A stretch of 64,000 nucleotides of DNA, from IMG/VR virus record IMGVR_UViG_3300043803_001772. One strand, given 5' to 3'. A program made the translations under genes and the position numbers. Shown one piece after another: positions 14,389 through 52,420 of the stretch (position 1 is the stretch's first letter; each line of letters begins with the position of its first letter). Source of the DNA: a virus (Duplodnaviria; Heunggongvirae; Uroviricota; Caudoviricetes). The notes below the pieces were generated by a model. That model was not told where the DNA came from. It saw nothing but the letters and a program-made list of their open reading frames with translations, and did no database searches.

Positions 14389-14394
14389 ACATTT

Positions 14395-15740: not shown

Positions 15741-15746
15741 TATATT

Positions 15747-16010: not shown

Positions 16011-16014
16011 ACGG
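16003..16014. other. perfect 12-bp palindrome ccgtttaaacgg containing the stops of both convergent genes
   Basis: TAA at 16008-16010 (+) and TAA read from 16009-16007 (-). Confidence 0.5.
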
Positions 16015-16201: not shown

Positions 16202-16211
16202 ATAACTTATA

Positions 16212-16400: not shown

Positions 16401-16453
16401 ATGTTTATAACTTTGTTAAATAACTAGAACACTACTATACAATAGTTATTATT

Positions 16454-27387: not shown

Positions 27388-28251
27388 TTACTGATAATTT
27401 TCTGTAGAACTACCAAGAATATAATTATTAGATCTTAGAAAAGTGTAAATTGATGTTGCACTCGGTAAAATATTAGTGGGATAGAGTGAATTTGCCCATT
27501 TAACTGTAACTGGAAACGTTGGAAGAACATTGTTTGAACCTGTATTGTTTAATATGACGACTATAGCACTACCTGTTCCAACATTTGTAAACGTATAAGT
27601 TTCACTAGTTGATACATTTTTTTCAAGTGTATTATTGGTCCAGTTAATTGATGTACCTGACAGTGTAGCTATCGTATAATTAGTTAAAGCATTTATCGCA
27701 AAAGTAGCATAACTGCTTGTAATTGGATAACTACTACCTGTACTTAAAGAAGATCCTCCGCTAGCATTTAAAGCGTAACTAGCTGTAATCGATCTTCTCG
27801 AATAACTGCTTGTTATGGGATACGTACTTCCAGTAAATAATGTAGTACCGCTTATACCACTACTTCCACTACTACCACTTGAACCATTGGTGCCGGATGT
27901 ACCACTTGTTCCACTAGTGCCACTGGTACCACTTGTTCCACTGGTGCCACTGGTGCCACTTGATCCACTAGTACCACTGTTACCTGATGTACCACTCGTA
28001 CCAGCATTTGCGTTTAAAGCGTAACTAGCTGTAATTGATCTTACCGCATAACTACTTGTTATAGGATAAGTACTACCTGTACTTAAAGTTGTTCCTCCAG
28101 CTCCTGACTTCAGTGAGTAACTAGCGGTCAAAGATCTTAAAGCGTAACTACTTGATCCAATTATTGTATTTTTAAAAAAAACACTACCACTTACTTTAAG
28201 TGATCCGCTTAAAATAGTTGATCCGGATAATGTCGGTGAGTAAATGATCAT
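27388..28251 (-). CDS. collagen-like (Gly-X-Y, proline-free) short fibre protein (287 aa)
   Basis: (GTS/GSS)n tract of about 40 triplets flanked by TGSTYPITSSY..SITASYALNA repeats shared with the giant fibres. Confidence 0.5.
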   Translation of the reverse strand: MIIYSPTLSGSTILSGSLKVSGSVFFKNTIIGSSSYALRSLTASYSLKSGAGGTTLSTGSTYPITSSYAVRSITASYALNANAGTSGTSGNSGTSGSSGTSGTSGTSGTSGTSGTSGTSGTNGSSGSSGSSGISGTTLFTGSTYPITSSYSRRSITASYALNASGGSSLSTGSSYPITSSYATFAINALTNYTIATLSGTSINWTNNTLEKNVSTSETYTFTNVGTGSAIVVILNNTGSNNVLPTFPVTVKWANSLYPTNILPSATSIYTFLRSNNYILGSSTENYQ

Positions 28252-31912: not shown

Positions 31913-34363
31913 CTATATATCTATACTAAATCCATATTCATCCACCAATGTTCCGCCATCTTCTAATGCTGCTTCTACCCAAATACCTGAAGTTGCGCTT
32001 ATTTTACGTTCACTATTGGAACAATTGAGTATTACAGGCAATTTCCAGTTGGAACCTGTATCATATTGATATATCGGCCAGTTTTTTGTAACGAAACTGG
32101 CTCTATAAGGTGTATTATAATCAAAGTTGGTTACATACAAACCAGGATTAGAATTACCTATTACTTGAAATGCTAAATCTTGACCATAATTTACTATACT
32201 TTGCGTTAAATTACCCCCACTCATATAATAAACTATATTGACTTGATTTACATAGTTTGTGGGAGAATCACTATTAAACGTTACAGTTGAAGCGGTACTA
32301 TATGGTCTAAATGTTGTATTTGAACCCAATACAGTTTCACTAATATTAGGTGTATATGATATATCTTTAAATGACCCAGACAATTTTGTCTTGTTATTTA
32401 TATCACTTTCACTTCGTAATGATGATAATCTATTGTTTGCACTAACATTTACTTCAAATCTAATATCATCATATTTCAATGATTTTAAGTTTGATGATTG
32501 ATTTACCAACTTATTATTAGATTCATCTTCATATACCAATTTTTTCAAATTATCGGTGGTATTAACCAATTTACCATATTCACCCAAAGAATAATTCAAA
32601 CTATTTAATGCCACATTGTATGTCATATTATTTGAATACGGTCCTTGAAACATACTCAAATTGGTCAATACACTGCTATTTTGCGTAACTGTTCTGATAT
32701 ATTCGTTGGGTACAAATGTTATGGAATGTAAAGAAGTTGCAAATGAAGCATTATCACCATAATCAGCGGATTTTAGTAGTAAACCATTTAAACCATTGGT
32801 TTGCGCAACCAAATCAATTTCATATTGATTGTAATTTAAACTACTAATAGTGAAATTTTCATTTACAATTTCAAGTTGTACATTATTATGACTTAAACTA
32901 CCCAAAACATTATTTGAAATTGAATTATCACCAAAATTAATATAGTTGCTTAAACCATTTAAAGATATAGAGTTATTGGATATATCAGAAAAATTTGTGT
33001 AATTGTTTAAACCGATTATATTACTTGTATTAATTGATGTGTCATTATAATTTACATAATACCCCGAGGATTTTAGTACTAATGAATTATTGGATGCATC
33101 AGTATAATTTATATAATATCCAGAAGATTTTAATGTTAATGAATTATTAGATGCGTCAGTATAGTTAACATAATACTGCGATCCTAACGTAGATACAGCA
33201 TTTTGTGATGCATCATAAAAATCCACATAGTACTGTGATCCTAACGTAGATACAGCATTTTGTGATGCATCATAAAAATCCACATAGTACTGTGAACCCA
33301 CTGTAGATAATGCGTTTTGAGATGCATCATAAAAGTTAACATAATATTGTGAACCCAATACCGTTAATGAGGTTTGTGATGCATCATAAAAATCTACATA
33401 ATACTGCGAACCCACCGTGGATACTGCGGTTTGTGACGCATCATAAAAATCTACATAGTATTCTGAACCAGCTACTGATACATCTATTTGCGATGAATCG
33501 GTATAGTCTACATAATATTGTGAACCAACTGTAGATACTGCGGTTTGTGATGCATCAAATATATTTGTGTAATAAGATGATCCAAATAACTGTACATTAT
33601 TGTTTCCAATATCAACTTGAGATGGTAAATGTAATGTGCTATATAAGTTAACACTATTAACTGAATTATCAATATCAGGTTTATAATTTGTGATACTGTT
33701 AAGTGACGTATTAGTATTACCACCATCTAATATATCTGTATAATAATTTGAACCATTTAATGCTATATTTGTTATTATTTGATCAGATAGATTTTTGTAG
33801 TGATCTACACTGTTTAGTGTATTGTATATAACACTTGAATTTAATATTGGAGTATCATATACGGTACTATTTAGTGTTATATTTTGATTACCAACATTTA
33901 TTTTTGGATCAACTAATTGAACGTTTGAAACGTTAATTGAATTAAAAACAGGATCACCTTCAAGTTTTAAACTTGTGTTATTTAAGGTAGGAGATATTGT
34001 AGCTGATTCTACAGATGCGTTTGTGTATACAACACTGTTTAGTGATTGTGCATAATCAATTTTATCCCCTATTGATGTTGGAATAGAAATACTATTGAGA
34101 GAACTGTATAATGTAGCTGGATTATATAGTGGAATAACATTAGCTGAACGTAATGTTATATTATTGGTAGCTGATTCTGTATCTAATTTGGTAAGAGCGG
34201 AGTTTAGTGTGAGGTTTAAACTTGCACTTTCAACTACTTTGACTCGGAAAATGAGATTGCGTCTATTTAATGAAAGAGGCGTACCCAAATACTTTCTGGT
34301 GAGAAATACTGGGTAGATCGGATTAAATAGAAACGACGATGAATTTGTAGCTCTAAATATCAT
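31913..34363 (-). CDS. fibre/adhesin protein (816 aa) with about ten 19-aa tandem repeats
   Basis: VGSQYYVDFYDASQ(T/N)AVST repeated. Encoded by a 57-bp DNA tandem array at about 33050-33560. Confidence 0.55.
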   Translation of the reverse strand: MIFRATNSSSFLFNPIYPVFLTRKYLGTPLSLNRRNLIFRVKVVESASLNLTLNSALTKLDTESATNNITLRSANVIPLYNPATLYSSLNSISIPTSIGDKIDYAQSLNSVVYTNASVESATISPTLNNTSLKLEGDPVFNSINVSNVQLVDPKINVGNQNITLNSTVYDTPILNSSVIYNTLNSVDHYKNLSDQIITNIALNGSNYYTDILDGGNTNTSLNSITNYKPDIDNSVNSVNLYSTLHLPSQVDIGNNNVQLFGSSYYTNIFDASQTAVSTVGSQYYVDYTDSSQIDVSVAGSEYYVDFYDASQTAVSTVGSQYYVDFYDASQTSLTVLGSQYYVNFYDASQNALSTVGSQYYVDFYDASQNAVSTLGSQYYVDFYDASQNAVSTLGSQYYVNYTDASNNSLTLKSSGYYINYTDASNNSLVLKSSGYYVNYNDTSINTSNIIGLNNYTNFSDISNNSISLNGLSNYINFGDNSISNNVLGSLSHNNVQLEIVNENFTISSLNYNQYEIDLVAQTNGLNGLLLKSADYGDNASFATSLHSITFVPNEYIRTVTQNSSVLTNLSMFQGPYSNNMTYNVALNSLNYSLGEYGKLVNTTDNLKKLVYEDESNNKLVNQSSNLKSLKYDDIRFEVNVSANNRLSSLRSESDINNKTKLSGSFKDISYTPNISETVLGSNTTFRPYSTASTVTFNSDSPTNYVNQVNIVYYMSGGNLTQSIVNYGQDLAFQVIGNSNPGLYVTNFDYNTPYRASFVTKNWPIYQYDTGSNWKLPVILNCSNSERKISATSGIWVEAALEDGGTLVDEYGFSIDI
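33050..33560. repeat. 57-bp tandem repeat array, about 9-10 copies (encodes 19-aa repeats)
   Basis: Identical 57-mers at 33180 and 33237 (gatcctaacgtagatacagcattttgtgatgcatcataaaaatccacatagtactgt). Diverging copies on both sides. Confidence 0.6.
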
Positions 34364-34402: not shown

Positions 34403-34675
34403 TTAGAATGGAGGATTTGGATCGGTCCATTCAGGTGTGGCTAATATATTTAATATTTCTGGATAAGTGTATGGACCTTCTGTGGTGGTCATTTGACTGA
34501 AAAATTCAGGTGTTGCGCCATCCCATTTACAAAATGTTTTGGTACCATCAACACTTTTTCTTACAGTGTCAATTGAAGTTTCTTGTACTTTAGTGAAATC
34601 TACAAGATTCAATTCACTTACATTGAATATCATAAATTCTCTATCCTCGTATATTGTTACATTTGTTTCACTCAT
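34403..34675 (-). CDS. hypothetical small protein (90 aa)
   Basis: ORF between the fibre gene and the LamG triplet. No motif recognised. Confidence 0.4.
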   Translation of the reverse strand: MSETNVTIYEDREFMIFNVSELNLVDFTKVQETSIDTVRKSVDGTKTFCKWDGATPEFFSQMTTTEGPYTYPEILNILATPEWTDPNPPF

Positions 34676-34680
34676 AAATT

Positions 34681-35382
34681 TTATAGTCCAAATCTGTTTT
34701 TAGTTGCGTTGTAATTAAATAATATTTCGCTGGAACTCAATACTCTGTTATATAATCTTACAATTGCTATACTGCCATTGAAATAACTGGGTGCCCAAGT
34801 AGCTGCTCCTATTTGTAAAGAGGTTGATGTATTAGGCAAAGTTGATGGTAAACTATTAACTCTACCACTGTATGATGTTTCTCTTCCATTAACAAACGTT
34901 CTTAATTGAGCACTTGGTGTAGCCAAACCAATTACTTGATTCCACGATCCCAAAGTTACACCTGTAGAAGTTTCTAAATAAACATCTGAGCCAGGAGAAC
35001 TCCAGTCAAAATATAAGTTACCCGAACTATACGCTATAAACCTGGGATTATCAGGTGTAGCACCACTGTCACTTGTTCCTCTATTTAAAAATGTGCCTGT
35101 TGTTGCAACGGTGGGTTTAATCCACACTTCATATGTAGCGCCATTTGGGGTGTTTAAAATAGAATTATATGGAACATTTACATAATCATTGGTACCATCA
35201 AATACTATACTTCCTTGATTACCCGCGCTAAAAGTGGGACCATTGGTTAATGTGCCTGTATTGTTATTGCCGCTCAAATCACGCCAAGTGGTACCTGTGC
35301 CAGGATAACTAAGTTTATCAGCAGCATCTAGTGCTAATACCAAACCGCTTGTTACAATTTTTGGACCTCTGGCTATTCCCAT
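34681..35382 (-). CDS. standalone Laminin_G_3/ConA-like lectin-fold protein, copy 3 of cluster 1 (233 aa)
   Basis: GLVLALDAADKLSYPGTGTTWRDLSGNNNTGTLTNGPTFSAGNQGSIVFDGTNDYV... ending IVRLYNRVLSSSEILFNYNATKNRFGL. This is the FDG.NDYV plus YNRaLsaeEi signature of the LamG_3 family. Confidence 0.6.
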   Translation of the reverse strand: MGIARGPKIVTSGLVLALDAADKLSYPGTGTTWRDLSGNNNTGTLTNGPTFSAGNQGSIVFDGTNDYVNVPYNSILNTPNGATYEVWIKPTVATTGTFLNRGTSDSGATPDNPRFIAYSSGNLYFDWSSPGSDVYLETSTGVTLGSWNQVIGLATPSAQLRTFVNGRETSYSGRVNSLPSTLPNTSTSLQIGAATWAPSYFNGSIAIVRLYNRVLSSSEILFNYNATKNRFGL

Positions 35383-35393
35383 ATACAGTATAA

Positions 35394-36101
35394 TTATAAA
35401 CCGAATCTTGTTTTAGTTGCGTTATAATTTTGCAATACTTCAGCTGTACTTAATGCTCTATTGTATATAAGGGCCGTTGATATATTTCCTTGCCAATATC
35501 TTCTAGAATTAATCGCATCAGCCCCTATACTTAATAAAGCAGATGCATTTTGTTTAAGTGTTCCATCATATGCGATACCACCATCTAAAATTCCGTTATA
35601 ATAAAAATAAACTTGACCCGCAGTTGCATTTGCTACCATTGATATATTATACCAAATATTTGTAGAAAAGTTTGTAGCGGTAGATGTAGTTTCACGATAA
35701 GTATTGTTACTTTGCCTAACTCCCCACCCCCATCTTTTAGGCGACAAATCGGCTCTCCAAAGTATATAATAGAGTTCATCACTAGCTGCACCTAATTCTA
35801 TAGGATTTCTTATTGTTGTGTCACTAGCAGTCAATCTAAGCCAAATAGAAAGTGTAACACTTGTAGACGGATTAAAAATACTGTTATATGTAAAACCAAC
35901 ATAATCATTTGTACCATCAAATACTATACTACCCATATTACCCGCGTTAAAAGTGGGACCATTGGTTAATGTGCCTGTGTTATTATTACCGCTTAAATCA
36001 GTCCACGTTGTGCCACTGCCTTTATAACTAAGTTTATCAGCTGCATCTAGTGATAAAACACATCCGCTTGTAATTATTTTGGGTCCTGATATTCCTGACA
36101 T
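35394..36101 (-). CDS. standalone LamG_3-like protein, copy 2 of cluster 1 (235 aa)
   Basis: Same conserved N-terminus and C-terminus (ALIYNRALSTAEVLQNYNATKTRFGL). Divergent central region. Confidence 0.6.
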   Translation of the reverse strand: MSGISGPKIITSGCVLSLDAADKLSYKGSGTTWTDLSGNNNTGTLTNGPTFNAGNMGSIVFDGTNDYVGFTYNSIFNPSTSVTLSIWLRLTASDTTIRNPIELGAASDELYYILWRADLSPKRWGWGVRQSNNTYRETTSTATNFSTNIWYNISMVANATAGQVYFYYNGILDGGIAYDGTLKQNASALLSIGADAINSRRYWQGNISTALIYNRALSTAEVLQNYNATKTRFGL

Positions 36102-36104
36102 ATA

Positions 36105-36773
36105 TTAGTATCCATATCTGCTTTTTGTAGCATTGTAATTTTGAAGTATTTCCGTTGCACTTAATTCTCTATTGTATATAGAAAATGTACTTACATTTCC
36201 GGTAAATTTAGACCAAAATGAATCTGGAGAACTACCTATTCTAATTGAATTTGAACTTATAGATAAATTACCTAAAGCAATAGTATTTTGTAATTTACCG
36301 TTTATATAACCTGACATAGTTGAATTAACAGTGTATGTTAATATTAAATTATACCATCTATTTACAATGATTGTATCTATAGGACTAATTGTATAAGTTG
36401 TAGTAGATACTTTTATATCTATTGATCCTCCATCAAATAAATTATATCCATTGGCAGAATTGATGCCTGAATGTTTGTTTGCAACACTCGCTGCTCTACC
36501 CGGTAAAGAGGTGGGTTTATACCAAACACTAATAGTTTGTGTATTTGCATTTAAAGTGTCATTATTAGATATATCTACATAATCATCCACACCATCAAAT
36601 AATATACTACCCATATTACCAGCGCTAAATGTAGGACCATTAGTTAATGTGCCGTTATTATTATTGCCGCTTAAATCTCTCCACGTGGTACCTGTGCGAG
36701 GATAGCTTAGGCGTTCAGCTGCATCTAATGCTAATACCAAACCGCTTGTGACTATTCGTGGGCTATAGTACAT
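36105..36773 (-). CDS. standalone LamG_3-like protein, copy 1 of cluster 1 (222 aa)
   Basis: Same conserved ends (LFDGVDDYV ... SIYNRELSATEILQNYNATKSRYGY). Confidence 0.6.
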   Translation of the reverse strand: MYYSPRIVTSGLVLALDAAERLSYPRTGTTWRDLSGNNNNGTLTNGPTFSAGNMGSILFDGVDDYVDISNNDTLNANTQTISVWYKPTSLPGRAASVANKHSGINSANGYNLFDGGSIDIKVSTTTYTISPIDTIIVNRWYNLILTYTVNSTMSGYINGKLQNTIALGNLSISSNSIRIGSSPDSFWSKFTGNVSTFSIYNRELSATEILQNYNATKSRYGY

Positions 36774-36776: not shown

Positions 36777-37025
36777 TTATGATTCGTTTAATATATTGGG
36801 CCAAACATTTTTAAGTTCTTGTGTATTGGTTATAGTGGATAAATCGGTGGTGGTAACATCTCTTAGAGCTTGTTTTTTGGCTACAATTTGTTGTTGTTTG
36901 GTTGTATCGCCATTTTCAACAGCACGCATAAATTCTGTATCTAATTTTTCCAAGATAGGTTTTCTTGCGGTTCTCCATCTATTTTTTTGTATTTCTTTGG
37001 CTTTATCAAGATTTATTGTTATCAT
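36777..37025 (-). CDS. small hypothetical protein (82 aa), possible fibre-assembly accessory
   Basis: ORF position between fibre genes. No motif recognised. Confidence 0.4.
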   Translation of the reverse strand: MITINLDKAKEIQKNRWRTARKPILEKLDTEFMRAVENGDTTKQQQIVAKKQALRDVTTTDLSTITNTQELKNVWPNILNES

Positions 37026-37031: not shown

Positions 37032-37280
37032 TTATAGTGTATCTGTTGGATATTCCCAGGCGTTTCTGAAGGTTCTATCTGTTGGTATATCTTCTACTGG
37101 TACAATTTTATATGATGTTCCTGCTGGTACATCTTTTGCAGCAATTCTTGTGATAAATTCGTCATAAGTTTCATCTGCATTTTTTGCATTTATTGATGGT
37201 ATTATTATAGCAACTCCACCATTTTCCGTTGGGTATATTATTCGTTTTTCACTCATACATTTATATATAGTAAACTTCAA
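37032..37280 (-). CDS. small hypothetical protein (82 aa)
   Basis: Overlaps the upstream gene by 4 nt. Confidence 0.4.
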   Translation of the reverse strand: MKFTIYKCMSEKRIIYPTENGGVAIIIPSINAKNADETYDEFITRIAAKDVPAGTSYKIVPVEDIPTDRTFRNAWEYPTDTL

Positions 37281-38386
37281 TTGCTAAATGCCAATGATGT
37301 AATTATCGTACTATCCGCCGCGACACCATTTTCAGTAGTATATATTTGATAATAATTTGTATTATATGCGCTTACATATGCACCGTAATTAGTATCGACC
37401 GTTACATTTCTTCGTTGAGCAATTGCAAAATAATTTGTATTACTTAATATAGTACTAAAATTTACTGTGTAATAACCTGTTCCGTTATCCGTTATGCTGC
37501 TTACATTGTAACTATCTCGTATTGCTACGGTGCCTTGACCATTAAAGTTGACCCAAGCTTTTGCTAATTGTGCGCCATTTATACCACCTGTTCCTATTGC
37601 AAATCCTGTTGCAGTACTATTAACCACTACAGTACTATTTGCATCACCTGTACTATCTAAAAATTGCGTGGTAGATGGCGTAAAATTACTCGTATACCTA
37701 GCTATACCTTTTGTAATTCGCAATTCATCTATATAACCTTGATAAAAACCATTAGTATAAGCGCCTATAGTAAAAGCTGTATTAGTAGATGATTGTGGGG
37801 TTCCTACTATAGTGTGTGTAGTTGAACTTTTTACTCCATTTACATATATATCTACCCCAACCGAACTTTTTACCATTGCTAAATGTGTCCACGTATTTAA
37901 AGTAAGAGTTAAATTGCTTGTAAAAGATTGGGCAGAACCGTTATAATAATAAAACTTTACATTACCGCTTGAATTTGTACCAAAACTCCAATAATTTGTG
38001 TCGCCATTAAAACTCATATTACCAATCAAATTGCCGATACTTCCGCCACTTCCCGTTGCGGCAGGAAATGAAATTGCATAGACCCACATTTCTAATGTAT
38101 AATCTACAGTCCACCAATCAAATAAAGCCGTATTATAAGTTGTTGAAACATAATCATTTGTACCGTCAAATAATACGCTACTGCCGCCGAATTTGCTTTG
38201 AGCAGTGCTTATGGCAGCACCATTTGTAGCAGTAACCGTAACATTATTTTTGCTATTATCTGTCATAGTGGTACTACCATTTGTACCATTAAAATGCATC
38301 AATAAGCTGGTTTGTGGATAATAAACATCACCTGTTGTGGTTCCAACAGGTACTGCGATTTGTGATAAAAAAGGTTTGGTTGCCAT
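37277..38386 (-). CDS. LamG_3-domain fibre-associated protein (369 aa)
   Basis: LLMHFNGTNGSTTMTDNSKNNVTVTATNGAAISTAQSKFGGSSVLFDGTNDYVST...EMWVY...GYIDELRITKGIARYTSNFTPSTTQF. Same module as in the giant fibres. Confidence 0.55.
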   Translation of the reverse strand: MATKPFLSQIAVPVGTTTGDVYYPQTSLLMHFNGTNGSTTMTDNSKNNVTVTATNGAAISTAQSKFGGSSVLFDGTNDYVSTTYNTALFDWWTVDYTLEMWVYAISFPAATGSGGSIGNLIGNMSFNGDTNYWSFGTNSSGNVKFYYYNGSAQSFTSNLTLTLNTWTHLAMVKSSVGVDIYVNGVKSSTTHTIVGTPQSSTNTAFTIGAYTNGFYQGYIDELRITKGIARYTSNFTPSTTQFLDSTGDANSTVVVNSTATGFAIGTGGINGAQLAKAWVNFNGQGTVAIRDSYNVSSITDNGTGYYTVNFSTILSNTNYFAIAQRRNVTVDTNYGAYVSAYNTNYYQIYTTENGVAADSTIITSLAFSN

Positions 38387-38392: not shown

Positions 38393-41300
38393 TTATAATT
38401 CGGATGTTAATATAACAGGTATTGTGGTGCTTGGAGCATTTAGATAACAAACTTGTCCAGCCGTCCCACCACCAGCAATTCCGAACTGAAATAATATAAA
38501 ATTATTTGTTGACACGGCGTTTAAAGCAAGAGAAGTCAATGTTTGATATGTCCCGCCATTAGGTATATAAACTTGATAATTGCCAGCGGTTACTGCAGAA
38601 CTTAATATAGGTATTGTTCTCATAATCTGTGGTAAGTTAAATCCAATAAATCCAAATGTTGTCCCTCCAAATGAACCAGGTGCGAGAAAATAATTTGTTC
38701 CAACTGCCGTGGTTAATGAATAACAATATCTTTGACAATTAACCAATTCTGTTCCGATCAATCTTCTTTCAAATGGTGTTGCTAATGGACCTGCTTCTAA
38801 TTGAACATTATCTATTGTCCAAGTGCCTGAAGTTTGAGCACCAACACTAAATACAATTTCAATACCTGTAGTAGCCGATGATGGAATAAATATTTGTGCG
38901 CTATATCTACTCAATGTACTAGTTACAGTAAATGTACCCGTAGATATTTGTGTTCGTGTAGGACTACCCAATGTACCAAATGTATCACTAGTAGTAGCAT
39001 AATAAGCAGTCCAAGTTACACTAGTCAATAAACTATTAGCCAAATCAACACCAAGCGTCGCTGTAGATCCTGCCAAATCAATACTATTAGCCGCTTCTAT
39101 TCTTTGTCCAAAACCAATACCAGTAACACTAGCCGCACCTGTAAATCTATAAGCATATTGATTATTACCTGTACCAGCAACTCTCTGACCAGTAACATTT
39201 GCACCAGTACAATATGCATACCATCTATCCACTGTATAAGCTAATGCAGCACCAGCAGTAATTGTCTGTGATGCGCCAGCATTTCTTTGGTCTATAGCCA
39301 TAGCACCATTGATAATACGATTAATATTGCTGGAATTTAAATTAAAACCAGCGGTACCAATACTAACACCTGTAGCAGTACTGTTTACAACCAACGCTTT
39401 ACCTACATCACCACCTGTATTAGAAAACGCAGTTGTTGATGGCGTAAAATTACCAGTATACCTAGCATACCCATTCGTAATTCTCAATTCATCAATATAT
39501 CCAGCAAAATTTAAAGTATTAGTTTTACTCGCTCCAATATAAATTACCGATGATACATAATTTGTACTGTCACTTACAGTTGACCCAACTTGCGTTCCAT
39601 TAATAAAAATTCTATTATTTCCTGATGCTCTAGTCCATACTATATGATTCCAACTATTTAATGTTAGTGTTCCCGAAGGCGATATTATTTCCGTTCCACC
39701 TTTCCATAAATTTAATTGATTATTATAACTATATAATATCCATCCTCCAACTGACGAATATACATCGTCGCCTACTAACGCTTTATATGCACTTACAGAT
39801 GACACGGTTTGATATATCCATAGTTCAACTGTCAAATCGTTTGTGCCAAATGTAAGCATCGGTGTTGTTTGTGAAACTAAATAATCATTTGTACCGTCAA
39901 GAAATACACTTGCACCACCGAATTTACTTTGTACAGTACTTATAAACGCACCATTTGTGGCAGTAACAGTTAAGTTATTTTTGCTATTGTCTGTGATTAC
40001 CGTGCTACCATTAGTACCGTCAAAATGTAACAATGCAGCAACTTGTGGATAATAAGCATCACCTGTGGTTGTACCTGTCAATACTATATTAGCTAAATTA
40101 ACATCACTGCTATTTGTAGCGGTTACTAAATATCTTGCATTAATTTTACTGCCAGATGGATAACTTTCAGTAAATGTAACTCTGCTTGCACTTACTGTAT
40201 AATCAGTTATAGGAGTTTGTATAATACCATTTACACTCAATAACACATCACTCGGGGAAACTACACTTCTACTCAATACATACAAATTACTACCACTAAC
40301 ATAATTCATCGTCTGATTAACCAACGCAGTACCACCATTTAATGCATAACTAGCAGTAATAGCTCTTCTTGAAAAACTGCTTGTTATAGGATAAGTACTT
40401 CCTGTTCTTAATGTACTACCACCACCACTTGCATTTAAAGCATAACTAGCAGTCTTAGATAATAATGAATAACTGCTAGTAACACTAACCTTAGTATAAT
40501 CAATCACATTCACATACACTCTGTCAATACTAGCACTTAAAGATCCACTTGATGGATTGCCAGGTGTAGTCATCTTCACTACTTTAAGCGAACTATCATT
40601 CAATTTTTGTACACCATAATCCACATTTGTGTCATTTAATCCACCTACAGTGCCTATGTATTTTGTCAGTGATTGATATAAAGATCGATTGTTATAAAAT
40701 TGAGAATTTTCCGGAGTGAAATTACCGGTATATCTTGCTACACCTTTTGTTAGTCTTAACTCATCTAAATAACCAGGATAATAATATGTTGCGGCATATC
40801 TTCCGATTTCTAGTGGTGCTGCTCCATTTGGTATTGTAGCGGTTGATGTAAATGTAGAAATTTGTGTTCCGTTTTGAAATGTTCTAAAAGTATTTCCTTG
40901 TCGAGTTACTGCATAATGTGTCCAACTATTTATTATTATAACACCCATACTTACAGCGCTCGCAATTGACCAACTACTCCCATTACCAGCAAAAAAATTA
41001 ATATTACCAGATTCGGTCCATCCAACCATCCATGGCGGTTGTCCGCTACTATTTCTAGATATTCCTGGTTTAAATACAGCATTTGATGTTCTATATTCCC
41101 AATATTCAATTGTAAAATCTCCGGTACCAAAATCAAATGCGGAATTATCCGGCACCGTAAGATAATCATCTGATCCGTCAAAAAACCCACTAGCACCACC
41201 AAATTTGCTTTGAACAGTGCTAATTGCAGCGCCGTTAACCGATGTAACTGTTTTTGGCGATGGACTATTATCGGTGAATGTAGTACTTCCATTTACACCA

Positions 41301-41761
41301 TTAAAATGCATCAACAAACTACAGCTGTTATAATATTGATCTCCAGGAATTATTTTTGCGTCCCATTCTTCCACAACACTAACATTCCACTTGTTGCTAC
41401 TCAAACTTAAGCCTGTAATAGTGTTTGTACTACCTGATTTTACATTAGTCCATAATGTCTGACTAGCAATACTACCTGTTTGCAGAGTTGCAGTACTACT
41501 TGTGCCACTTGATCCCGCAGTACCACTGGTGCCTGGACTACCTACTCCGCTTGTACCACTACTACCAGCTGTAGCACTTGTTCCACTAGTTCCACTGCTT
41601 CCGACTGATCCATTTGCACCACTTGTGCCGCTACTACCAGCTGCGCCTCCCATCACATAACTAGCAGTTAAAGATCGTCTCGCATAACTAGATGTACCAC
41701 TAAAAGATCCAGTAAATGGTCCTTGTGATATTAAAGATGGTAGTATTTTTAGTAATGGCAT
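38393..41761 (-). CDS. giant tail-fibre/adhesin (1122 aa) with collagen-like tract and two LamG_3 modules
   Basis: G-S/T-S tract near the N-terminus. Two LHF(N/D)G.NGST..TDNS...FDG.(D/N)DY...ELRITKG.ARYTGNFTP modules. Shared module YIGTVGGLNDTNVDYGVQKLNDSSLKVVKM. Confidence 0.6.
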   Translation of the reverse strand: MPLLKILPSLISQGPFTGSFSGTSSYARRSLTASYVMGGAAGSSGTSGANGSVGSSGTSGTSATAGSSGTSGVGSPGTSGTAGSSGTSSTATLQTGSIASQTLWTNVKSGSTNTITGLSLSSNKWNVSVVEEWDAKIIPGDQYYNSCSLLMHFNGVNGSTTFTDNSPSPKTVTSVNGAAISTVQSKFGGASGFFDGSDDYLTVPDNSAFDFGTGDFTIEYWEYRTSNAVFKPGISRNSSGQPPWMVGWTESGNINFFAGNGSSWSIASAVSMGVIIINSWTHYAVTRQGNTFRTFQNGTQISTFTSTATIPNGAAPLEIGRYAATYYYPGYLDELRLTKGVARYTGNFTPENSQFYNNRSLYQSLTKYIGTVGGLNDTNVDYGVQKLNDSSLKVVKMTTPGNPSSGSLSASIDRVYVNVIDYTKVSVTSSYSLLSKTASYALNASGGGSTLRTGSTYPITSSFSRRAITASYALNGGTALVNQTMNYVSGSNLYVLSRSVVSPSDVLLSVNGIIQTPITDYTVSASRVTFTESYPSGSKINARYLVTATNSSDVNLANIVLTGTTTGDAYYPQVAALLHFDGTNGSTVITDNSKNNLTVTATNGAFISTVQSKFGGASVFLDGTNDYLVSQTTPMLTFGTNDLTVELWIYQTVSSVSAYKALVGDDVYSSVGGWILYSYNNQLNLWKGGTEIISPSGTLTLNSWNHIVWTRASGNNRIFINGTQVGSTVSDSTNYVSSVIYIGASKTNTLNFAGYIDELRITNGYARYTGNFTPSTTAFSNTGGDVGKALVVNSTATGVSIGTAGFNLNSSNINRIINGAMAIDQRNAGASQTITAGAALAYTVDRWYAYCTGANVTGQRVAGTGNNQYAYRFTGAASVTGIGFGQRIEAANSIDLAGSTATLGVDLANSLLTSVTWTAYYATTSDTFGTLGSPTRTQISTGTFTVTSTLSRYSAQIFIPSSATTGIEIVFSVGAQTSGTWTIDNVQLEAGPLATPFERRLIGTELVNCQRYCYSLTTAVGTNYFLAPGSFGGTTFGFIGFNLPQIMRTIPILSSAVTAGNYQVYIPNGGTYQTLTSLALNAVSTNNFILFQFGIAGGGTAGQVCYLNAPSTTIPVILTSEL

Positions 41762-42159: not shown

Positions 42160-45100
42160 TTAAGAAATTGTTATTGTGTCTGAACCAGCTGTAAACGTAG
42201 TAATTTTATAACTTCCAGTAGTAACAGTCGTCGAAGTCAAACCCACACCAATTGTTAAAGTTCTATTAGATAAATATTTTGCAATTACAATACCTGATCC
42301 ACCATTATATGCACTTTCATTTGGATATCCACCACCTCCGCCACCTCCTCCACGCGACGCCTCGCCCGCAGATCCGTTTCCATTTCCATAGTTACCATTT
42401 CCACCTCCGCCTAGACCACCTGTTCCGCGATTGGTGACACCACTATTTCCACCATATACACCTCCGCCGCCGCCGCCAGCATAATATATTGGAGTGCTTG
42501 AAATGTTAGATATAAGCCCATTTCCACCATTACCTCCTGAACCAGGAGTATAACTTCCACCAATAACACCAGCGCCACCTCCACCACCACCAGCATATGG
42601 CGGACTAGTAGGACTACCAGCTCCACCATTATTACCTTGTGACACAGTTCCAGATCCACCTGCACCCTGGGTTGCACCACCTCCACCTGAACCGCCTGGG
42701 TTAGCCGGTTTGTATTCAGATCCTGCTCCGCCACCACCTGTCGATGTAATTGATGCAAATACACTATTACTCCCATTGGCACCATTTGCAGCTCTTGATG
42801 CTGCTGCCGATCCACCTGAACCAACTGAGACCGTGTATGCAACAGACCGAAGCAAACCCAAAGAACCAGTTCTAAAACCTCCTGCTCCACCACCACCAGC
42901 ATGCGCAAAACCACCACCACCACCGCCTGCTAAAACCAAATATTGAAATTGGTCAGCACTGGTAATATATGTTATAGCATTTATTTTAAATGTAGAAGCC
43001 CCGTCAGTATTCATCAAATATATTGGATAAGTACCTTCATTTTTTGAAATTACATTTACATTAAGTTTGTTGCTATTAACATATGTGACTATTGACCCAG
43101 ACGTATTATCTATAAATATAGATGCGCTAGGCTTAAAATTACTACCTGATATAGTAATATAATTGGTATTTGGTTTAATTATATCTATAAAAGACGATGT
43201 GGTTGGAACATAACTACTATTTGTATAAATAATAGATTTAATTTTGGGAATATCCAATGAATTAACTGAATTTAAAGCATTAGTAGCATAACTGCTTGTA
43301 ACCGCAACTTTACTATAATCCAATACGTTTACATATACCCTATCCACACTGCTACTCAACGACCCACTTGGAAACGGCGATGTGGTTTGAGACATCTTGA
43401 CCACTTTAAGCGAACTATCACTCAATTTCTGCACACCATAGTCTACACTTCTATCATTTAAACCACCAATCAAACCAATGTACTTAGTCGCATATTGCGT
43501 AACACCAATACTATTCGGAAAAGCCGATGTTTGTGGTGTAAAATTACCGGTATATCTTGCAACCCCTTTTGTAATTCTCAATTCATCTATATAACCAACA
43601 AAATAACCACTGCTTACAATTTGGCCAATTGTTAAGGCGGATGTAGATGTTAATGTAGTTCCTCCTGTATATGTAGAACCTTCTTGAACACCATTCAAAA
43701 ATAATTTATATGAACCAGCTGTACCGGATACTGCAATGTGATACCAAGTATCAGTTGAAATTGTTGTAGTGCCTATAATATCCTGTCCATTTCCTGATAA
43801 ATTTACATTTACTACACCGTTCAATAATTGAAGCACCCAACCATTTGTAACATCTTGATAATTAGTAACTAAAACTCTCTGACCAGATACCGAAGAAAAA
43901 TATGCCCAAAGTTCAACTGTAAATGTTCCTGATGTAAAATTAAACTCCGCATTATTTGGAATTGAAACATAATCATTTGTACCATCAAAAAATACACTAG
44001 CTCCTCCAAATTTGCTTTGTGCTGTACTAATTACAGCACCATTTGCAGCGGTAACGGTAAAATTATTTTTGCTATTGTCAGTTATAGTAGTGCTACCATT
44101 AGTACCGTCAAAATGTAATAATAAACTACAGCTATTATAATATTGATCCCCAGCTACAATTACAGCGTCCCACTCCTCTTTAATATCTACACCCCACTTA
44201 TTACCACTTAGATTTAAACCTGTAATTACGTTTTGGCTGCCTGACGTTACGTTGTACAATATGGTTTGTTTAGCAATACTACCTGTTTGTACAGTGCCAT
44301 TTATACCACTAGTGCCACTTGATCCTTGACCAGCATTAATATATCTAACATCAACCAATCCGCCACTTTGTACAGCTTCACTTAAAGTCAAAGTTGTACC
44401 ACTTACAGTATAATTGCTACCTGTTCGACTTTGTACCACACCGTTTGTTACAACAAGTATTTGATCTCGGTTTACAACACTTTGATTTAAAGTATATACA
44501 GTTTGACTACCATTGCTTATAAAAGTTTGAGCACCAGCAAGTGAAGATCCACCACCGCTTGCATTTAAAGCATAACTAGCAGTTAAAGATCTTCTGGACC
44601 AACTGCTTGTTATAGGATATAAACTACCAGTTGTTAATGAAGCACCCCCACCACTTGTACCACTTGATCCAGAAGCACCAGTTGCACCGCTGCTACCAGA
44701 TGTACCATTATTTCCACTGCTTCCACTGCTTCCAGTTGTACCTGATGTACCACTATTACCACTTGATCCACTACTACCAGAAGCACCGCTAGATCCACTT
44801 GATCCATTTTGACCACTGGTACCTGATGAACCAGCTGTTGAACTGGTGCCTGATGTACCTGAAGTACCATTATTTCCGCTCGTACCACTACTGCCATTTG
44901 CACCCCCACCCAATATATAACTTGCGGTCAAAGCATTGGTAGCATAACTGCTAGTTACACTAACGTTTGTGTAATTAAGCACATTCACATATACTCTATC
45001 AACAGATGCGCTTAATGATCCACTTGGAAACGGCGAAGTGGTTTGTGTCATCTTCACCACCTTAAGCGAACTATCACTCAGCTTTTGTACGCCGTAATCT

Positions 45101-46857
45101 ACGCTTTTATCATTCAATCCACCAATCAAACCTACATACTTAGTCGCATATTGTGTTGATCCTCCATTGGTTGGAAATTGAGATGTAGCTGGGGTAAAAT
45201 TGCCAGTGTATCTAGCCACACCGTTTGTAATTCTAATATTTGATAAATACCCAGGAAAATGCCATACAGCACCATCAACTGAGCTGAATCCACTCTGTCG
45301 ACCAATATACAAATTATTATTAGCACCAGGAGTAACATTTAAATTAATTGAATTCCACGAATATGTACTATCTGTTCCTACAAGTGACCCATTATACCAA
45401 AATTTAATTTGATTTGAAGTTCTGGTTACCGCAACGTGTGCCCAAGTATTTAATGGAATATTAATTGCATTGCTTGAAACACCATAATAATCGGGTACAC
45501 CAAAACTGTTTCCACCTTTTGTTGCAAATGATAATCTATTTCCAGCTTGTACGTTGTATATAAATGAATAAAAAACTCTACTGTTTGAATTTTCCGCAAA
45601 ATAATTTCCCAATTGTATTAATGGTGCATATGTTTCACCTACAGCTGTGGTACCATTTTGCGTCAAATATAAGAAACACTCTATAGTAAAATCATTTGTA
45701 CCTAATAACAACGAAGTTGTATTTGGTGTAGTTAGATAATCACCATTACCATCTAAATAAAGACTACCCCCACTAAATTTAGTTTGCGCCGTACTAATTT
45801 GAGCATTACCATTAGCAGTCATCGTTTTTGGCGATGAACTATTGTCAACAAATGATGTACTTCCGTTGCTTCCGGTGAGGCGTAATAATAAATTTACATT
45901 ATTATAATATTGATCTCCAGGTACAACCGCATAGTCCCATTCTTCTTTAATGTCTACACCCCACTTGTTTCCGCTTAAATTTAGGCCTGTAATAGTGTTT
46001 TGGCTGCCTGATACTACATTGTACAATATGGTTTGCTTAGCTAAACTACCTGTTTGCAACGTTGCGGTACCACTTACACCGCTTGATCCACTGGTACCTT
46101 GTGTGCCTGCTGCACCTGTTCCACTTGTACCACTTGATCCAGGTGTACCAGTTGCACCACTACTACCACTGGTACCAGTTGCACCACTTGACCCACTTGT
46201 GCCTGTGGAACCACTACTACCAGCAGTGCCACTGCTGCCTGATGTACCATTTGCACCACTACTTCCTGATGTGCCAGAAGCGCCACTGCTGCCTGATGAT
46301 CCGTTATTACCGCTTGTGCCACTTGATCCGTTATTACCGCTTGTACCTGATGATCCGTTATTACCACTTGTACCGCTACTACCCACTCCACCACCTGTTA
46401 CATAACTTGCACTTAACGCTTTAAGTGCATAACTGGATGTATTTGTATTTGAACCTATTGGTACTGTTACTATACTACTACTGAAGAAATTGAGTTTTGG
46501 ACTATTATTTGTGACAGTAACTGTAAGTGGATAATTATCAAAATAAATACTCGCGGTACTTACATATATATCTTTCCATTTATTAGTAGCATTACCCAAA
46601 CTATATGTGTTATTTTTAGCGGGTATTAAAGATTGACTTATGGTGGCTAAATAACTAGCAGTAACTGCTTTTCTTGAATAACTAGCAGTAATTGGATAAG
46701 TACTACCAGTTCGTAATGAAGCACCGCCGCCACCACTCGCATTCAACGCATAACTTGCGGTTAATGCTCTTCTTGAATAACTGCTGGTACCACGAAATGA
46801 ACCAGTAAAGCTACCACTTGAAATTAATGCTGGTAATACCTTTGTTAACGTCAACAT
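42160..46857 (-). CDS. giant tail-fibre/adhesin (1565 aa): collagen-like tracts, at least two LamG_3 modules, IPT/TIG-like domain, Gly-rich C-terminus
   Basis: Two G-(S/T)-S tracts. LLLRLTGSNGSTSFVDNS...LYLDGNGDYLTTP and LLLHFDGTNGSTTITDNS...VFFDGTNDYVSIP modules. IPKIKSIIYTNSSY...ITISGSNFKPSASIFID...GTYPIYLMNTDGAS (IPT-like). C-terminal AGGGGGGFAHAGGGGAGG tracts. Confidence 0.6.
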   Translation of the reverse strand: MLTLTKVLPALISSGSFTGSFRGTSSYSRRALTASYALNASGGGGASLRTGSTYPITASYSRKAVTASYLATISQSLIPAKNNTYSLGNATNKWKDIYVSTASIYFDNYPLTVTVTNNSPKLNFFSSSIVTVPIGSNTNTSSYALKALSASYVTGGGVGSSGTSGNNGSSGTSGNNGSSGTSGNNGSSGSSGASGTSGSSGANGTSGSSGTAGSSGSTGTSGSSGATGTSGSSGATGTPGSSGTSGTGAAGTQGTSGSSGVSGTATLQTGSLAKQTILYNVVSGSQNTITGLNLSGNKWGVDIKEEWDYAVVPGDQYYNNVNLLLRLTGSNGSTSFVDNSSSPKTMTANGNAQISTAQTKFSGGSLYLDGNGDYLTTPNTTSLLLGTNDFTIECFLYLTQNGTTAVGETYAPLIQLGNYFAENSNSRVFYSFIYNVQAGNRLSFATKGGNSFGVPDYYGVSSNAINIPLNTWAHVAVTRTSNQIKFWYNGSLVGTDSTYSWNSINLNVTPGANNNLYIGRQSGFSSVDGAVWHFPGYLSNIRITNGVARYTGNFTPATSQFPTNGGSTQYATKYVGLIGGLNDKSVDYGVQKLSDSSLKVVKMTQTTSPFPSGSLSASVDRVYVNVLNYTNVSVTSSYATNALTASYILGGGANGSSGTSGNNGTSGTSGTSSTAGSSGTSGQNGSSGSSGASGSSGSSGNSGTSGTTGSSGSSGNNGTSGSSGATGASGSSGTSGGGASLTTGSLYPITSSWSRRSLTASYALNASGGGSSLAGAQTFISNGSQTVYTLNQSVVNRDQILVVTNGVVQSRTGSNYTVSGTTLTLSEAVQSGGLVDVRYINAGQGSSGTSGINGTVQTGSIAKQTILYNVTSGSQNVITGLNLSGNKWGVDIKEEWDAVIVAGDQYYNSCSLLLHFDGTNGSTTITDNSKNNFTVTAANGAVISTAQSKFGGASVFFDGTNDYVSIPNNAEFNFTSGTFTVELWAYFSSVSGQRVLVTNYQDVTNGWVLQLLNGVVNVNLSGNGQDIIGTTTISTDTWYHIAVSGTAGSYKLFLNGVQEGSTYTGGTTLTSTSALTIGQIVSSGYFVGYIDELRITKGVARYTGNFTPQTSAFPNSIGVTQYATKYIGLIGGLNDRSVDYGVQKLSDSSLKVVKMSQTTSPFPSGSLSSSVDRVYVNVLDYSKVAVTSSYATNALNSVNSLDIPKIKSIIYTNSSYVPTTSSFIDIIKPNTNYITISGSNFKPSASIFIDNTSGSIVTYVNSNKLNVNVISKNEGTYPIYLMNTDGASTFKINAITYITSADQFQYLVLAGGGGGGFAHAGGGGAGGFRTGSLGLLRSVAYTVSVGSGGSAAASRAANGANGSNSVFASITSTGGGGAGSEYKPANPGGSGGGGATQGAGGSGTVSQGNNGGAGSPTSPPYAGGGGGGAGVIGGSYTPGSGGNGGNGLISNISSTPIYYAGGGGGGVYGGNSGVTNRGTGGLGGGGNGNYGNGNGSAGEASRGGGGGGGGYPNESAYNGGSGIVIAKYLSNRTLTIGVGLTSTTVTTGSYKITTFTAGSDTITIS

Positions 46858-46902: not shown

Positions 46903-47607
46903 TTATCTTCCAAACCTAACTCTTGTAGCATTATAGTTTTGAAGCATTTCCGCAGCGGTTAATGCTCTATTGTAAATCATACACATAGACAATGAACTAT
47001 CTAAATATCCAGAAGTCCCTTCAAAGGAATTTAAATATATAAAATCAGGATCTGTTATTAATGGAACATTACCTGTAGAAGTACCAATAGTTGTACTTTT
47101 TAATGTATTATTTATATATATGTTGTATTGAGAACTTTCGTAGTTAAAAACAATATTATACCAAGTTCCAGCAGATAAAGATCCTCCATCATTAACAGCC
47201 GTTCTTTTGTCACCAGGTTCTTGTACAATAGTAATATATTCATTTGCAACACGGCCTGTATTATCCCCAAAACTTATATATTTAATTGTACTACTTTTTA
47301 AATAAATTAAACTTTTACCGACCGATGCGGAATTAATTATTGTAGTTGGTTTAATCCACATACTAATACAATATATATTAAAAGCAGATACTGGATTCAC
47401 AACCGCATAATCATTTGTGCCATCAAATACTATACTACCCATATTACCAGCGTTAAATGTAGGACCATTGGTTAATGTGAGATTTTTACCAGTACCGCTT
47501 AAATCGGTCCAAGTGGTACCAGTGCCAGGATAGCTAAGTTTATTAGCCGCATCCAAACACAATACTAATCCACTTGATACAATTTTTGGTCCTCTAGATA
47601 TACCCAT
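46903..47607 (-). CDS. standalone LamG_3-like protein, copy 3 of cluster 2 (234 aa)
   Basis: GLVLCLDAANKLSYPGTGTTWTDLSG...FDGTNDYA ... MIYNRALTAAEMLQNYNATRVRFGR. Confidence 0.6.
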   Translation of the reverse strand: MGISRGPKIVSSGLVLCLDAANKLSYPGTGTTWTDLSGTGKNLTLTNGPTFNAGNMGSIVFDGTNDYAVVNPVSAFNIYCISMWIKPTTIINSASVGKSLIYLKSSTIKYISFGDNTGRVANEYITIVQEPGDKRTAVNDGGSLSAGTWYNIVFNYESSQYNIYINNTLKSTTIGTSTGNVPLITDPDFIYLNSFEGTSGYLDSSLSMCMIYNRALTAAEMLQNYNATRVRFGR

Positions 47608-47618
47608 ATACAGTATAA

Positions 47619-48302
47619 TTATCTGCCAAATCTACTTTTAACAGCATTATAGTTCTGCAACACTTCAGTAGCACTTAATGCTCGGTTGTATATTTGTACA
47701 CTAGACATATTACCTTTAAATGGTACGCCGAATGTATATTCTTCATCACCGATCACACCATTAAATGCAGACGACGCAGGCGGAACTGCCGTTGTAAATG
47801 ATGTACCCACTTGATAACCATTTTTATACAACATAATAGTAGTTGATGTCGTTGAATATGTTACGCACACTTGTGTCCACGTATTTGTTGCAATTCCAGC
47901 TGCTACTTGTATTTCTGTCGCAGTGCTGGTATGAAAATATGTAAGATTTCCTGATGTGGCTCTATTGATAGTAAATACCCATCCATCACCATTTACACTT
48001 CTTGTTCCACATATACCTGCTCTACTGGTAGTAGTGGGATATATAAATGCACAAATTGTTTTTGAACCTACACCTGATATTTGTGTAGGAAAAGATCCAA
48101 CATAATCATTTGTACCATCAAATAATATACTACCCATATTACCAGCGCTAAATGTAGGACCATTGGTTAATGTGCCATTATTACTATTACCACTTAAATC
48201 GGTCCAAGTGGTACCTGTGCGAGGATAGCTAAATTTATTAGCCGCATCCAAACACAATACTAATCCATTTTCAACAATATCTGGTCCACTTTTTCCTGAC
48301 AT
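47619..48302 (-). CDS. standalone LamG_3-like protein, copy 2 of cluster 2 (227 aa)
   Basis: GLVLCLDAANKFSYPRTGTTWTDLSGNSNNGTLTNGPTFSAGNMGSILFDGTNDYV ... QIYNRALSATEVLQNYNAVKSRFGR. Confidence 0.6.
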   Translation of the reverse strand: MSGKSGPDIVENGLVLCLDAANKFSYPRTGTTWTDLSGNSNNGTLTNGPTFSAGNMGSILFDGTNDYVGSFPTQISGVGSKTICAFIYPTTTSRAGICGTRSVNGDGWVFTINRATSGNLTYFHTSTATEIQVAAGIATNTWTQVCVTYSTTSTTIMLYKNGYQVGTSFTTAVPPASSAFNGVIGDEEYTFGVPFKGNMSSVQIYNRALSATEVLQNYNAVKSRFGR

Positions 48303-48313
48303 ATATATTATAA

Positions 48314-49986: not shown

Positions 49987-50008
49987 ATGTTTGTTTAATA
50001 TATATAGT

Positions 50009-52405: not shown

Positions 52406-52420
52406 ATTATTATATATAGT

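Follow-up and report, generated by a model that had tools for sequence, protein, structure and literature searches.

Background

In T-even phages, gp38 reportedly carries glycine-rich motifs that flank hypervariable segments, and gp37 is said to hold conserved boxes, observations ascribed to Tetart et al. (1996/1998) and Trojet et al. (2011). In these mosaics the conserved blocks flank variable specificity segments and serve as homology for swaps between phages, and the outcome is a change of host range without loss of assembly. We describe here a type of locus that appears to evolve in the same mode. It was analysed in a stretch of 64,000 nucleotides from a tailed virus (Caudoviricetes; IMG/VR record IMGVR_UViG_3300043803_001772), hereafter the window, which contains two triplets of small minus-strand genes, each encoding a standalone Laminin_G_3 (LamG) domain. 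As in the T-even mosaics, conserved blocks flank variable segments, the histories of the two are discordant, and the breakpoints lie at their borders. The likeness would be one of evolutionary mode and not of homologous family, and searches with the six proteins gave no match to gp37 or gp38. What differs is the fold, a LamG jelly roll unlike the polyglycine sandwich of gp38; the tandem layout of small, whole genes; the exchanged unit, which makes up about 60% of a domain; the junction blocks, which span a gene boundary; a small linked gene, called w90 below; and the recurrence of triplets.

Two other classes of system have to be compared. Diversity-generating retroelements (DGR) diversify ligand-binding proteins, mainly of phages and bacteria, with a reverse transcriptase (RT) and a template repeat which mutate adenine-templated sites in a short region; in the loci described here, by contrast, whole segments appear to be replaced from a standing pool of alleles. 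The Mu G segment, the P1 C segment and the R64 shufflon depend on a site-specific recombinase, inverted short sites and silent alternatives. They resemble the present loci in that alternative specificity segments share a constant part, but unlike in the shufflon all copies here are complete, co-oriented and presumably co-expressed. The same module family is found in the cultured phages S-PM2 (p176) and S-SKS1 (SWZG_00005, in a genome that also carries w90), with 34-40% identity and the same fold; there the modules are domains of proteins of 960-1058 aa, whereas the present phage, like hundreds of metagenomic ones, encodes them as separate genes arranged in arrays.

Branched sets of receptor-binding proteins (RBP) with conserved N-terminal anchors or docking peptides are described, in excerpts of two reports, for Klebsiella KP32-type phages and the CBA120 tailspikes (PMC13352976, PMC12692247). 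As far as these excerpts go, the sets share with our loci the side-by-side arrangement of paralogous RBPs, similar N-termini, different specificity parts and modular exchange; they differ in having a separate anchor domain and large trimeric enzymatic spikes, while our proteins have integral N-terminal strands, two conserved ends and a size of about 25 kDa. Excerpts on Streptomyces umbrella toxin particles (PMC13274773; bioRxiv 10.1101/2025.04.24.650519) likewise present diversified lectin sets, that is a diversified set of paralogues on one particle and a bet-hedging over target surface glycans; this system is bacterial and not of phage origin, and the analogy, as these excerpts allow it, is a functional one only. 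A full-text literature search, whose coverage was incomplete so that absence is not proven, did not turn up any account of phage LamG_3 cassettes in tandem arrays.

Organization of the two triplets

A reading of the window from its letters and open reading frames (ORF), hereafter the sequence-only reading, had proposed two triplets of LamG paralogs of about 225-235 aa. All six ORFs are indeed present at the positions proposed, on the minus strand, with lengths of 222-235 aa, and all pass the Pfam model Laminin_G_3 (PF13385) with 48-82 bits (E 1e-12 to 1e-23) for a gathering score of 27.6 bits. In the order of transcription, triplet A is composed of A3 (36105-36773, 222 aa), A2 (35394-36101, 235 aa) and A1 (34681-35382, 233 aa), and triplet B of B3 (48314-48994, 226 aa), B2 (47619-48302, 227 aa) and B1 (46903-47607, 234 aa). 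The intergenic spacers inside the triplets measure 3-11 nt. The Laminin_G_3 match of A3 has an E-value of 2.2e-21; against NCBIfam, A3 gave only a sub-threshold TafC fimbrial match (38 bits, cut-off 410), which was not used. All six belong, as standalone members, to a very large family of LamG/ConA-like jelly-roll proteins of phages, and they lie in the tail-fibre/baseplate region.

Each triplet had been thought to lie immediately downstream of a giant fibre gene. We found instead that each follows two small ORFs, upstream of which lies a LamG protein of 369 aa (locus A) or 798 aa (locus B); the giant 1565-aa LamG/collagen gene is downstream of triplet B. At locus A the two small ORFs (37032-37280 and 36777-37025, minus strand, both of 82 aa) form the conserved left flank, and the second has a weak match to a tail fibre assembly PHROG (E 0.003). 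At locus B the conserved left flank consists of w125 (48999-49376) and w234 (49378-50082), also on the minus strand.

Conserved ends and divergent cores

The six genes can be divided into three segments. The N segment, which covers the first ~67 codons and ends just past the motif FDGxxDYV, shows 66-84% pairwise protein identity; the core, of ~140 residues, shows 16-27%; and the C segment, the last ~25 codons with the motif YNRxLSxxExLQNYNAxKxRFG, shows 58-83%. From N segment to core to C segment the coordinates are ~36576-36773, ~36180-36575 and 36105-36179 for A3; 35898-36101, ~35469-35897 and 35394-35468 for A2; 35179-35382, ~34755-35178 and 34681-34754 for A1; 48797-48994, ~48387-48796 and 48314-48386 for B3; 48099-48302, ~47692-48098 and 47619-47691 for B2; and 47404-47607, ~46975-47403 and 46903-46974 for B1. 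The conservation of the 5' codons had been noticed at the nucleotide level, and this stands: a repeat search of the window recovered the 5' parts as a six-copy family (D8) of 194 nt with 76-88% identity. Its length, however, is about 67 codons and not about 80. A 22-mer reported as common to the three copies of the second cluster is exact in B1, B2 and B3 and present in A3 with 3 mismatches, where none is expected by chance. The central residues had been described as completely different. With 16-27% identity they are very distant, but the fold is still common to the cores: the Laminin_G_3 match extends across them, and they retain the W, NG and G landmarks. The core differences consist of many insertions and deletions across nine strands and not of changes at a few sites.

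The conserved ends of neighbouring genes form, with the spacer between them, a junction block of ~290 nt, composed of the last ~75 nt of a gene, the spacer of 3-11 nt and ~200 nt from the start of the gene that follows. The block at 35180-35468 (minus strand), for example, contains the end of A2, an 11-nt spacer and the start of A1. The equivalent blocks lie at 35899-36179, 48101-48386 and 47406-47721 on the same strand, and the blocks also match one another within the window (families D7/D8).

An AlphaFold2 model of A3, built from 66 sequences, was obtained with a mean pLDDT (predicted local distance difference test) of 93.6. It contains 15 strands forming a single jelly roll over all 222 residues, residues 1-10 being less confident (pLDDT 71). 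The conserved N segment (residues 12-68) provides five strands, the variable core (residues 78-179) nine strands with their loops, and the conserved C segment (residues 191-220) the last strand and a helix. A separate anchor domain at the conserved N-terminus was considered and rejected, since residues 12-68 are strands of the one jelly roll that ends and core form together. For the same reason the cores should not be seen as separate lectin "heads", as had been suggested; according to the model, the variable part would be most of a domain rather than a few loops. Foldseek aligned ~220 columns of the model to ConA-like domains with probability 1.00. The closest solved folds are AbnA domain 4 (5hon, template modelling score 0.80), a trans-sialidase lectin domain and the HC domain of clostridial neurotoxin, and matches were also obtained with LamG proteins of uncultured freshwater phages, with the S-SKS1 and S-PM2 virion proteins and with an algal giant virus. 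The closest fold relatives are carbohydrate-binding or lectin-like domains, from which we infer that the six proteins may bind sugars.

Replacement of cores in related phages

A search of related genomes and metagenomes for cassette and copy-number variation, proposed as a check by the sequence-only reading, revealed core replacement at both loci and arrays of variable size. Related metagenomic phage loci or contigs are designated below by L-numbers; most of the comparison sequences are metagenome assemblies. No cultured relative was found at the DNA level (megablast of 22 kb against 50,697 phage records), and cultured relatives are detected only with proteins. The window sequence itself was obtained by independent assembly in at least five samples, with 100% identity along more than 10 kb.

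Locus A has four syntenic relatives, L001, L004, L007 and L079. The pair of 82-aa ORFs that precedes the triplet is 84-95% identical in L079/L080 and is also found in L001, L004 and L007. The blastn homology extends through the genes upstream and enters each LamG gene, where it breaks off near codon 67. It returns some 25 codons short of the stop codon, continues over the spacer and is lost once more at codon 67 of the following gene. The DNA homology of the arrays with their syntenic relatives is thus confined to the junction blocks, with 74-96% identity, and the ~420-nt cores between them are unrelated. For A3 the homology to L004, L007 and L001 ends at 36551-36576 and is back at 36179. For genes at the same position in L001, L004 and L007, respectively, the N-segment DNA is 90, 92 and 85% identical and the core protein 27, 22 and 19% for A3; the figures are 80, 89 and 87% against 15, 22 and 24% for A2, and 82, 88 and 89% against 16, 19 and 21% for A1. 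In the close relative L079 the counterpart of the A2 core has no more than 62% identity, beside neighbouring genes that reach ~98% along their whole length.

Relatives of locus B were gathered with w125, the upstream 125-aa gene, as a marker (42 loci), and several of them sit on the same contigs as A-type relatives. Their arrays contain N segments of the B3, B2 and B1/A1 types in this order, with 72-94% identity, and their cores differ. L092 illustrates the situation: compared with the window, w125 is 99% identical, the flank 85.5%, the two junctions 96.3% and 89.6% and the downstream region 90.4%, and all three cores are unrelated to the B cores of the window.

Cores were also found at other places than their own. 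An A1-type core occupies position 1 of the L081 quartet (87% identity) and, at the B locus, position 3 in L102 (89%) and L111 (83%). The B1 core is 85% identical to that of the middle gene of the A-type triplet of L001, a B2-like core (58%) stands at position 1 in L102, and the B3 core shares 51-54% identity with those of L030.1 and of L111 position 1. A particularly simple case is offered by L081 and L082, which are 97-100% identical through genes 1, 2 and 4 and differ in gene 3 (235 against 207 aa). Along gene 3 the identity first drops to 73-93% in the N segment, is lost abruptly from codon 67 on and is again 97-100% just past the C segment. The 207-aa version was found in two independent samples. 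This pair looks like a recent, single and clean core replacement with its edges inside the conserved segments. The comparisons together show that cores have been exchanged relative to the junction blocks, from one paralogous slot to another and from phage to phage, and that the borders of the exchange lie at set positions. The earlier idea of swappable cores exchanged by recombination in the conserved ends is supported by the unrelated cores in syntenic arrays, by the displaced cores, by the L081/L082 pair and by the synonymous divergences reported below.

Synonymous divergence and selection

Synonymous divergence (dS) between the window and L079 is ~0.35 in the small flanking genes. Compared with this background, the A3 core has a dS of 0.023 and its N and C segments 0.28 and 0.56, the whole A1 gene has 0.038, and the A2 core 1.12. 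The same discordance exists between more distant loci: for A1 and L081.1 the core dS is 0.35 and that of the ends 1.6 or saturated, and for B1 and L001.2 the core dS is 0.26 and that of the ends 1.1-1.6. Core dS is thus uncoupled both from that of its own ends and from that of the genome background.

These figures bear on the simplest alternative, namely that the genes are ordinary divergent paralogues whose ends are alike from constraint on the fold, with no core exchange. The contrast between ends and core is indeed family-wide (54% against 17% between unrelated loci), the N-terminal motif is a generic one of LamG_3 that is present in embedded modules, and the ends belong to the same domain as the core. 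Divergence in place nevertheless leaves unexplained the 85-96% identical junction DNA beside cores devoid of DNA similarity in syntenic loci, the reappearance of one core at several positions and loci, the L081/L082 pair with its one differing core, and cores whose synonymous divergence is 10-25 times lower than that of their own ends. We therefore regard this explanation as very unlikely.

The ratio dN/dS of orthologous cores is 0.18-0.35. This indicates purifying selection and argues against hypermutation, and it makes "hypervariable", the word used in the sequence-only reading, misleading, as the cores are not fast-mutating. They are rather old, constrained alleles, drawn from a large pool and shuffled. 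Diversification of the cores in place, by targeted hypermutation of the DGR type or by intense positive selection, might be invoked to explain why they are as different as unrelated members of the family (16-27% identity), and Laminin_G_3 is mentioned in an excerpt of a survey of DGR (PMC5758913). With many insertions and deletions across nine strands, with these dN/dS values and with nearly identical cores in diverged genomes (the A3 core dS of 0.023), we hold it to be extremely improbable. The self-comparison of the window by blast gave no repeat pair with more than 75% of mismatches at one base, and no adenine-specific pair such as a DGR template and variable region would form; the most base-biased pairs lie in fibre repeats, outside the LamG cores. 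A crude six-frame check of the window found two [YF]xDD matches in long frames, neither in an RT-like context, and there is no RT among the ORFs scanned. Within these limits the earlier statement that no reverse transcriptase is present, and that the locus is not a classical DGR, is borne out.

Gene conversion and proposed origin of the rack

The N segments carry a second signal. Their nucleotide identity is 77-83% within cluster A, 81-89% within cluster B and 70-80% between clusters, in accordance with the earlier remark that within-cluster similarity is the higher; the cores show no difference between the two types of comparison. Within the window the N-segment dS is 0.18 for B1-B2 and 0.57-0.72 for pairs within A, and that of the cores is saturated. 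Exact runs of 51 nt between A3 and B2 and of 43 nt between B3 and B2 were detected (permutation p <= 0.0002). Since residues are cluster-specific (VLAL vs VLCL, DAAD vs DAAN) and N-segment dS is lower within clusters, gene conversion is likely to act within a genome. The junction blocks are, by this evidence, partly homogenised within a genome, and the local duplication or gene conversion anticipated from the letters alone agrees with the exact patches of 43-51 nt between paralogues and with the low within-cluster dS.

The very first residues are by contrast specific to the position in the triplet and common to both triplets: MYY.PRIV in A3 and B3, MSG.SGP in A2 and B2, MGI.RGPKIV in A1 and B1. 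The spacers are likewise position-specific and common to both. Because of this correspondence, a duplication of the whole rack of three as a unit is suggested as the origin of loci A and B.

Regular, position-specific junction blocks, together with an array size that is strikingly constant at three, could also evoke a programmed switch operated during infection by a dedicated site-specific recombinase, of the type of Mu Gin, P1 Cin or the shufflon. Yet all genes are co-oriented and are complete ORFs with their own start, and there are no silent, promoterless or inverted copies. The repeats, all in the same orientation, are long and imperfect and do not look like short crossover sites. No recombinase family was found in the ORFs scanned between 16 and 63 kb, those below 100 aa having been partly scanned. 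Finally, population variation gave no signal: five near-identical contigs, from independent assemblies, are 100% identical over 10 kb, including the B locus. Such a switch is accordingly the kind of explanation to which we give almost no credit. The pattern fits ordinary homologous recombination over evolutionary time, and nothing in the sequence data suggests a programmed switch.

The LamG family and the w90 gene

Beyond the close relatives, a scan of IMG/VR yielded 324 relatives, and a search with a hidden Markov model (HMM) covering 78 loci showed that tandem arrays of standalone members of 215-245 aa are common. Triplets are the commonest size (26 of the 60 distinct complete arrays), and arrays reach 12-13 genes. 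Heteromeric assembly on a three-fold fibre is one guess at why the number three is kept. Among 171 distinct members from different loci, identity reaches 54% in the N segment and 59% in the C segment, against 17% in the core. The cores of 188 distinct members fall into 152 types at 50% identity, and in 20 inter-locus pairs from several lineages N segments at least 88% identical accompany cores less than 35% identical. In a large protein database 6,381 homologues were found at E <= 1e-10, nearly all of those listed being unnamed or called 'hypothetical protein'. We also observed two to four modules of the same family fused in single ORFs of 458-1055 aa (L016, L019, L022, L035, L042, L055 and L077), which suggests that fusion and fission across spacers of 3-11 nt may be easy.

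The gene w90 (34403-34675, minus strand, 90 aa) lies directly downstream of A1 and is linked to LamG arrays. Homologues exist in 63 of ~90 loci, always within or beside LamG arrays, and the linkage extends to the cultured phages S-SKS1 and Flavobacterium phage immuto; in S-SKS1 the w90 homologue comes directly after the 960-aa multi-LamG protein, in the tail fibre/baseplate cluster. Among 4,095 homologues, the best 120 are 71-97% identical, and w90 is far more conserved than the LamG cores. It gave no sequence match in Pfam, PHROG, NCBIfam or PDB, and its AlphaFold2 model (pLDDT 82) has no fold match in PDB. By its position, which is usual for a fibre assembly chaperone or adaptor, w90 is a candidate for such a role.

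Genomic context of the triplets

Between 27 and 60 kb, fibre-type genes on the minus strand make up one long block. Five of its proteins pass the Pfam threshold for collagen repeats (sizes given for 287, 1200, 1565 and 1626 aa), and proteins of 393 and 1122 aa have sub-threshold collagen matches. Embedded Laminin_G_3 domains are found in the proteins of 369, 798, 1122 and 1565 aa, and ORFs 57578-59650 and 27388-28251 match tail-fibre PHROGs. The C-terminus of p176 in S-PM2 is formed by the module; this protein is annotated 'virion structural protein', a RefSeq label only, and is not named in a review consulted for its proteomics. In immuto a tandem pair annotated 'structural protein' stands beside a tail-fibre-like gene.

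This context is relevant to another possibility, that core swapping is real but that the proteins act outside the virion, in receptor masking, superinfection exclusion or binding of host glycans after release. Direct virion evidence is lacking for standalone members, they have no separate anchor domain, and the basis of the immuto labels is unverified. The position of the genes, surrounded within one operon by genes for collagen-like and LamG fibre proteins, the fusion of the same module to large virion structural proteins in S-PM2 and S-SKS1, and the fused ORFs of two to four modules in relatives all point the other way, and we judge a non-virion role unlikely, though less so than the alternatives considered above.

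The 369-aa protein (37277-38386, minus strand) carries an embedded LamG of a second subtype (E 2e-20) with a core at ~37739-38159. Its homology to L079, L004, L007 and L001 breaks between ~38160 and 37738; because its LamG core is replaced in relatives, cassette behaviour is not limited to standalone genes. Five further second-subtype modules lie in 38393-41761, 42160-46857 and 50009-52405 (minus strand), and modules of this subtype also have conserved flanks (repeat families D17-D20).

Several other repeats were recorded in the fibre genes. Tandem 141-nt (47-codon) repeats of 70-82% identity at 49984-50843 and 52414-53280 (families D4 and D6) correspond to the 3' part of the 798-aa gene, which overlaps ORF 49378-50082, and to the 3' part of the 1626-aa gene. 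Seven tandem 57-nt repeats (33080-33592) lie in an 816-aa protein, whose relatives of 886 and 911 aa are ~60% identical, with repeat number or content probably variable. A motif of 54-91 nt occurs 12-20 times across all large fibre genes (D11-D14; 27.7-31.7, 40.3-41.7, 44.5-46.8 and 52.3-57.3 kb), and there are also long collagen-like tracts of 9-nt periodicity; motif and tracts are further recombination substrates among fibre genes.

The plus-strand part of the window (1853-13731) encodes an RNA ligase, a polynucleotide kinase, a phosphoesterase, a DNA ligase and a homing endonuclease (5948-6679), and a Mom-like modification protein is encoded at 9528-10241 on the minus strand. Because of this set of ligases, kinase, Mom-like protein and homing endonuclease, the source is identified as a large virulent-type phage. 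Polynucleotide kinase, phosphoesterase and RNA ligase make up a set of the RNA-repair type, and a second kinase-like ORF (60882-61484, minus strand) adjoins the fibre genes. The 2.7 kb that precede the strand switch (13700-16450) contain only small plus-strand ORFs of 54-97 aa. A 223-aa ORF at 19087-19758 (minus strand) matches a sulfotransferase domain (E 1.6e-5, 24.9 bits for a cut-off of 22) and sits in an operon of otherwise unannotatable, presumably structural, genes. Scans of the whole window for tRNA and for Rfam families found nothing.

Discussion

We consider it probable, while keeping appreciable doubt, that the triplets work as a rack holding exchangeable cassettes, and that they encode virion-borne glycan-binding adhesins whose specificity is set by the core. 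Each gene consists of a 5' segment of ~67 codons (five strands), a core of ~140 codons (nine strands) and a 3' segment of ~25 codons. The rack is the series of junction blocks, position-specific in order and vertically inherited, and the cores are swapped by homologous recombination with crossovers inside these blocks, between paralogues of one genome as well as between co-infecting related phages. Patchy gene conversion keeps the junction blocks alike within a genome. The comparisons show this exchange; as its agent, we infer general homologous recombination during co-infection and replication. The conserved ends of these putative adhesins would give the proteins the same fold framework and probably a shared surface for docking, with w90 or the fibre proteins as conceivable partners; with ligand specificity set by the core, its exchange would alter adsorption or host range.

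Several points weigh against this model or narrow what it has to explain. Much of the contrast between ends and core appears to be a property of the whole family, and that part needs no recombination; the N-terminal motif is a general LamG_3 feature, found also in the embedded second subtype, and the set of loci was gathered with patterns and an HMM which favour conserved ends. As the ends are, in the structural model, integral strands of the domain, fold constraints alone could account for their conservation, and any role in docking is a guess. Differences of order could partly reflect duplication and loss and not replacement. Assembly chimeras at repeats are conceivable in metagenome assemblies; they are unlikely as an explanation, because the arrangements recur in independent samples and because cultured phages also have arrays. 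No copy of w90 adjoins triplet B. Lastly, the virion location of the six proteins, their sugar binding and their effect on host range are all putative.

More speculatively, and as a possibility that we would not bet on at present, aquatic phages may widely carry such a rack-and-cassette device, usually with three slots and w90, with cores taken from hundreds to thousands of types and with junctions kept alike partly to preserve exchangeability. If this were true, it would be a recombination-based counterpart to DGR for retargeting phage adhesion, and the constant number of three might stem from heteromers built on a fibre of three-fold symmetry.

Which bacteria a phage kills depends mainly on host recognition, and this is the worst-annotated part of environmental phage genomes. 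The locus described here adds a case in which gene conversion and inter-phage recombination act on tandem whole genes and not on parts of one long fibre gene. It offers a sequence-defined grammar for a widespread class of candidate adhesins, made of fixed junctions, exchangeable cores and a small partner. With this grammar arrays can be detected automatically, core types catalogued, core turnover followed in time-series metagenomes, and core swaps engineered at natural breakpoints. What makes the system interesting is mainly its wide occurrence, its sharp definition and its direct use in annotation and engineering.

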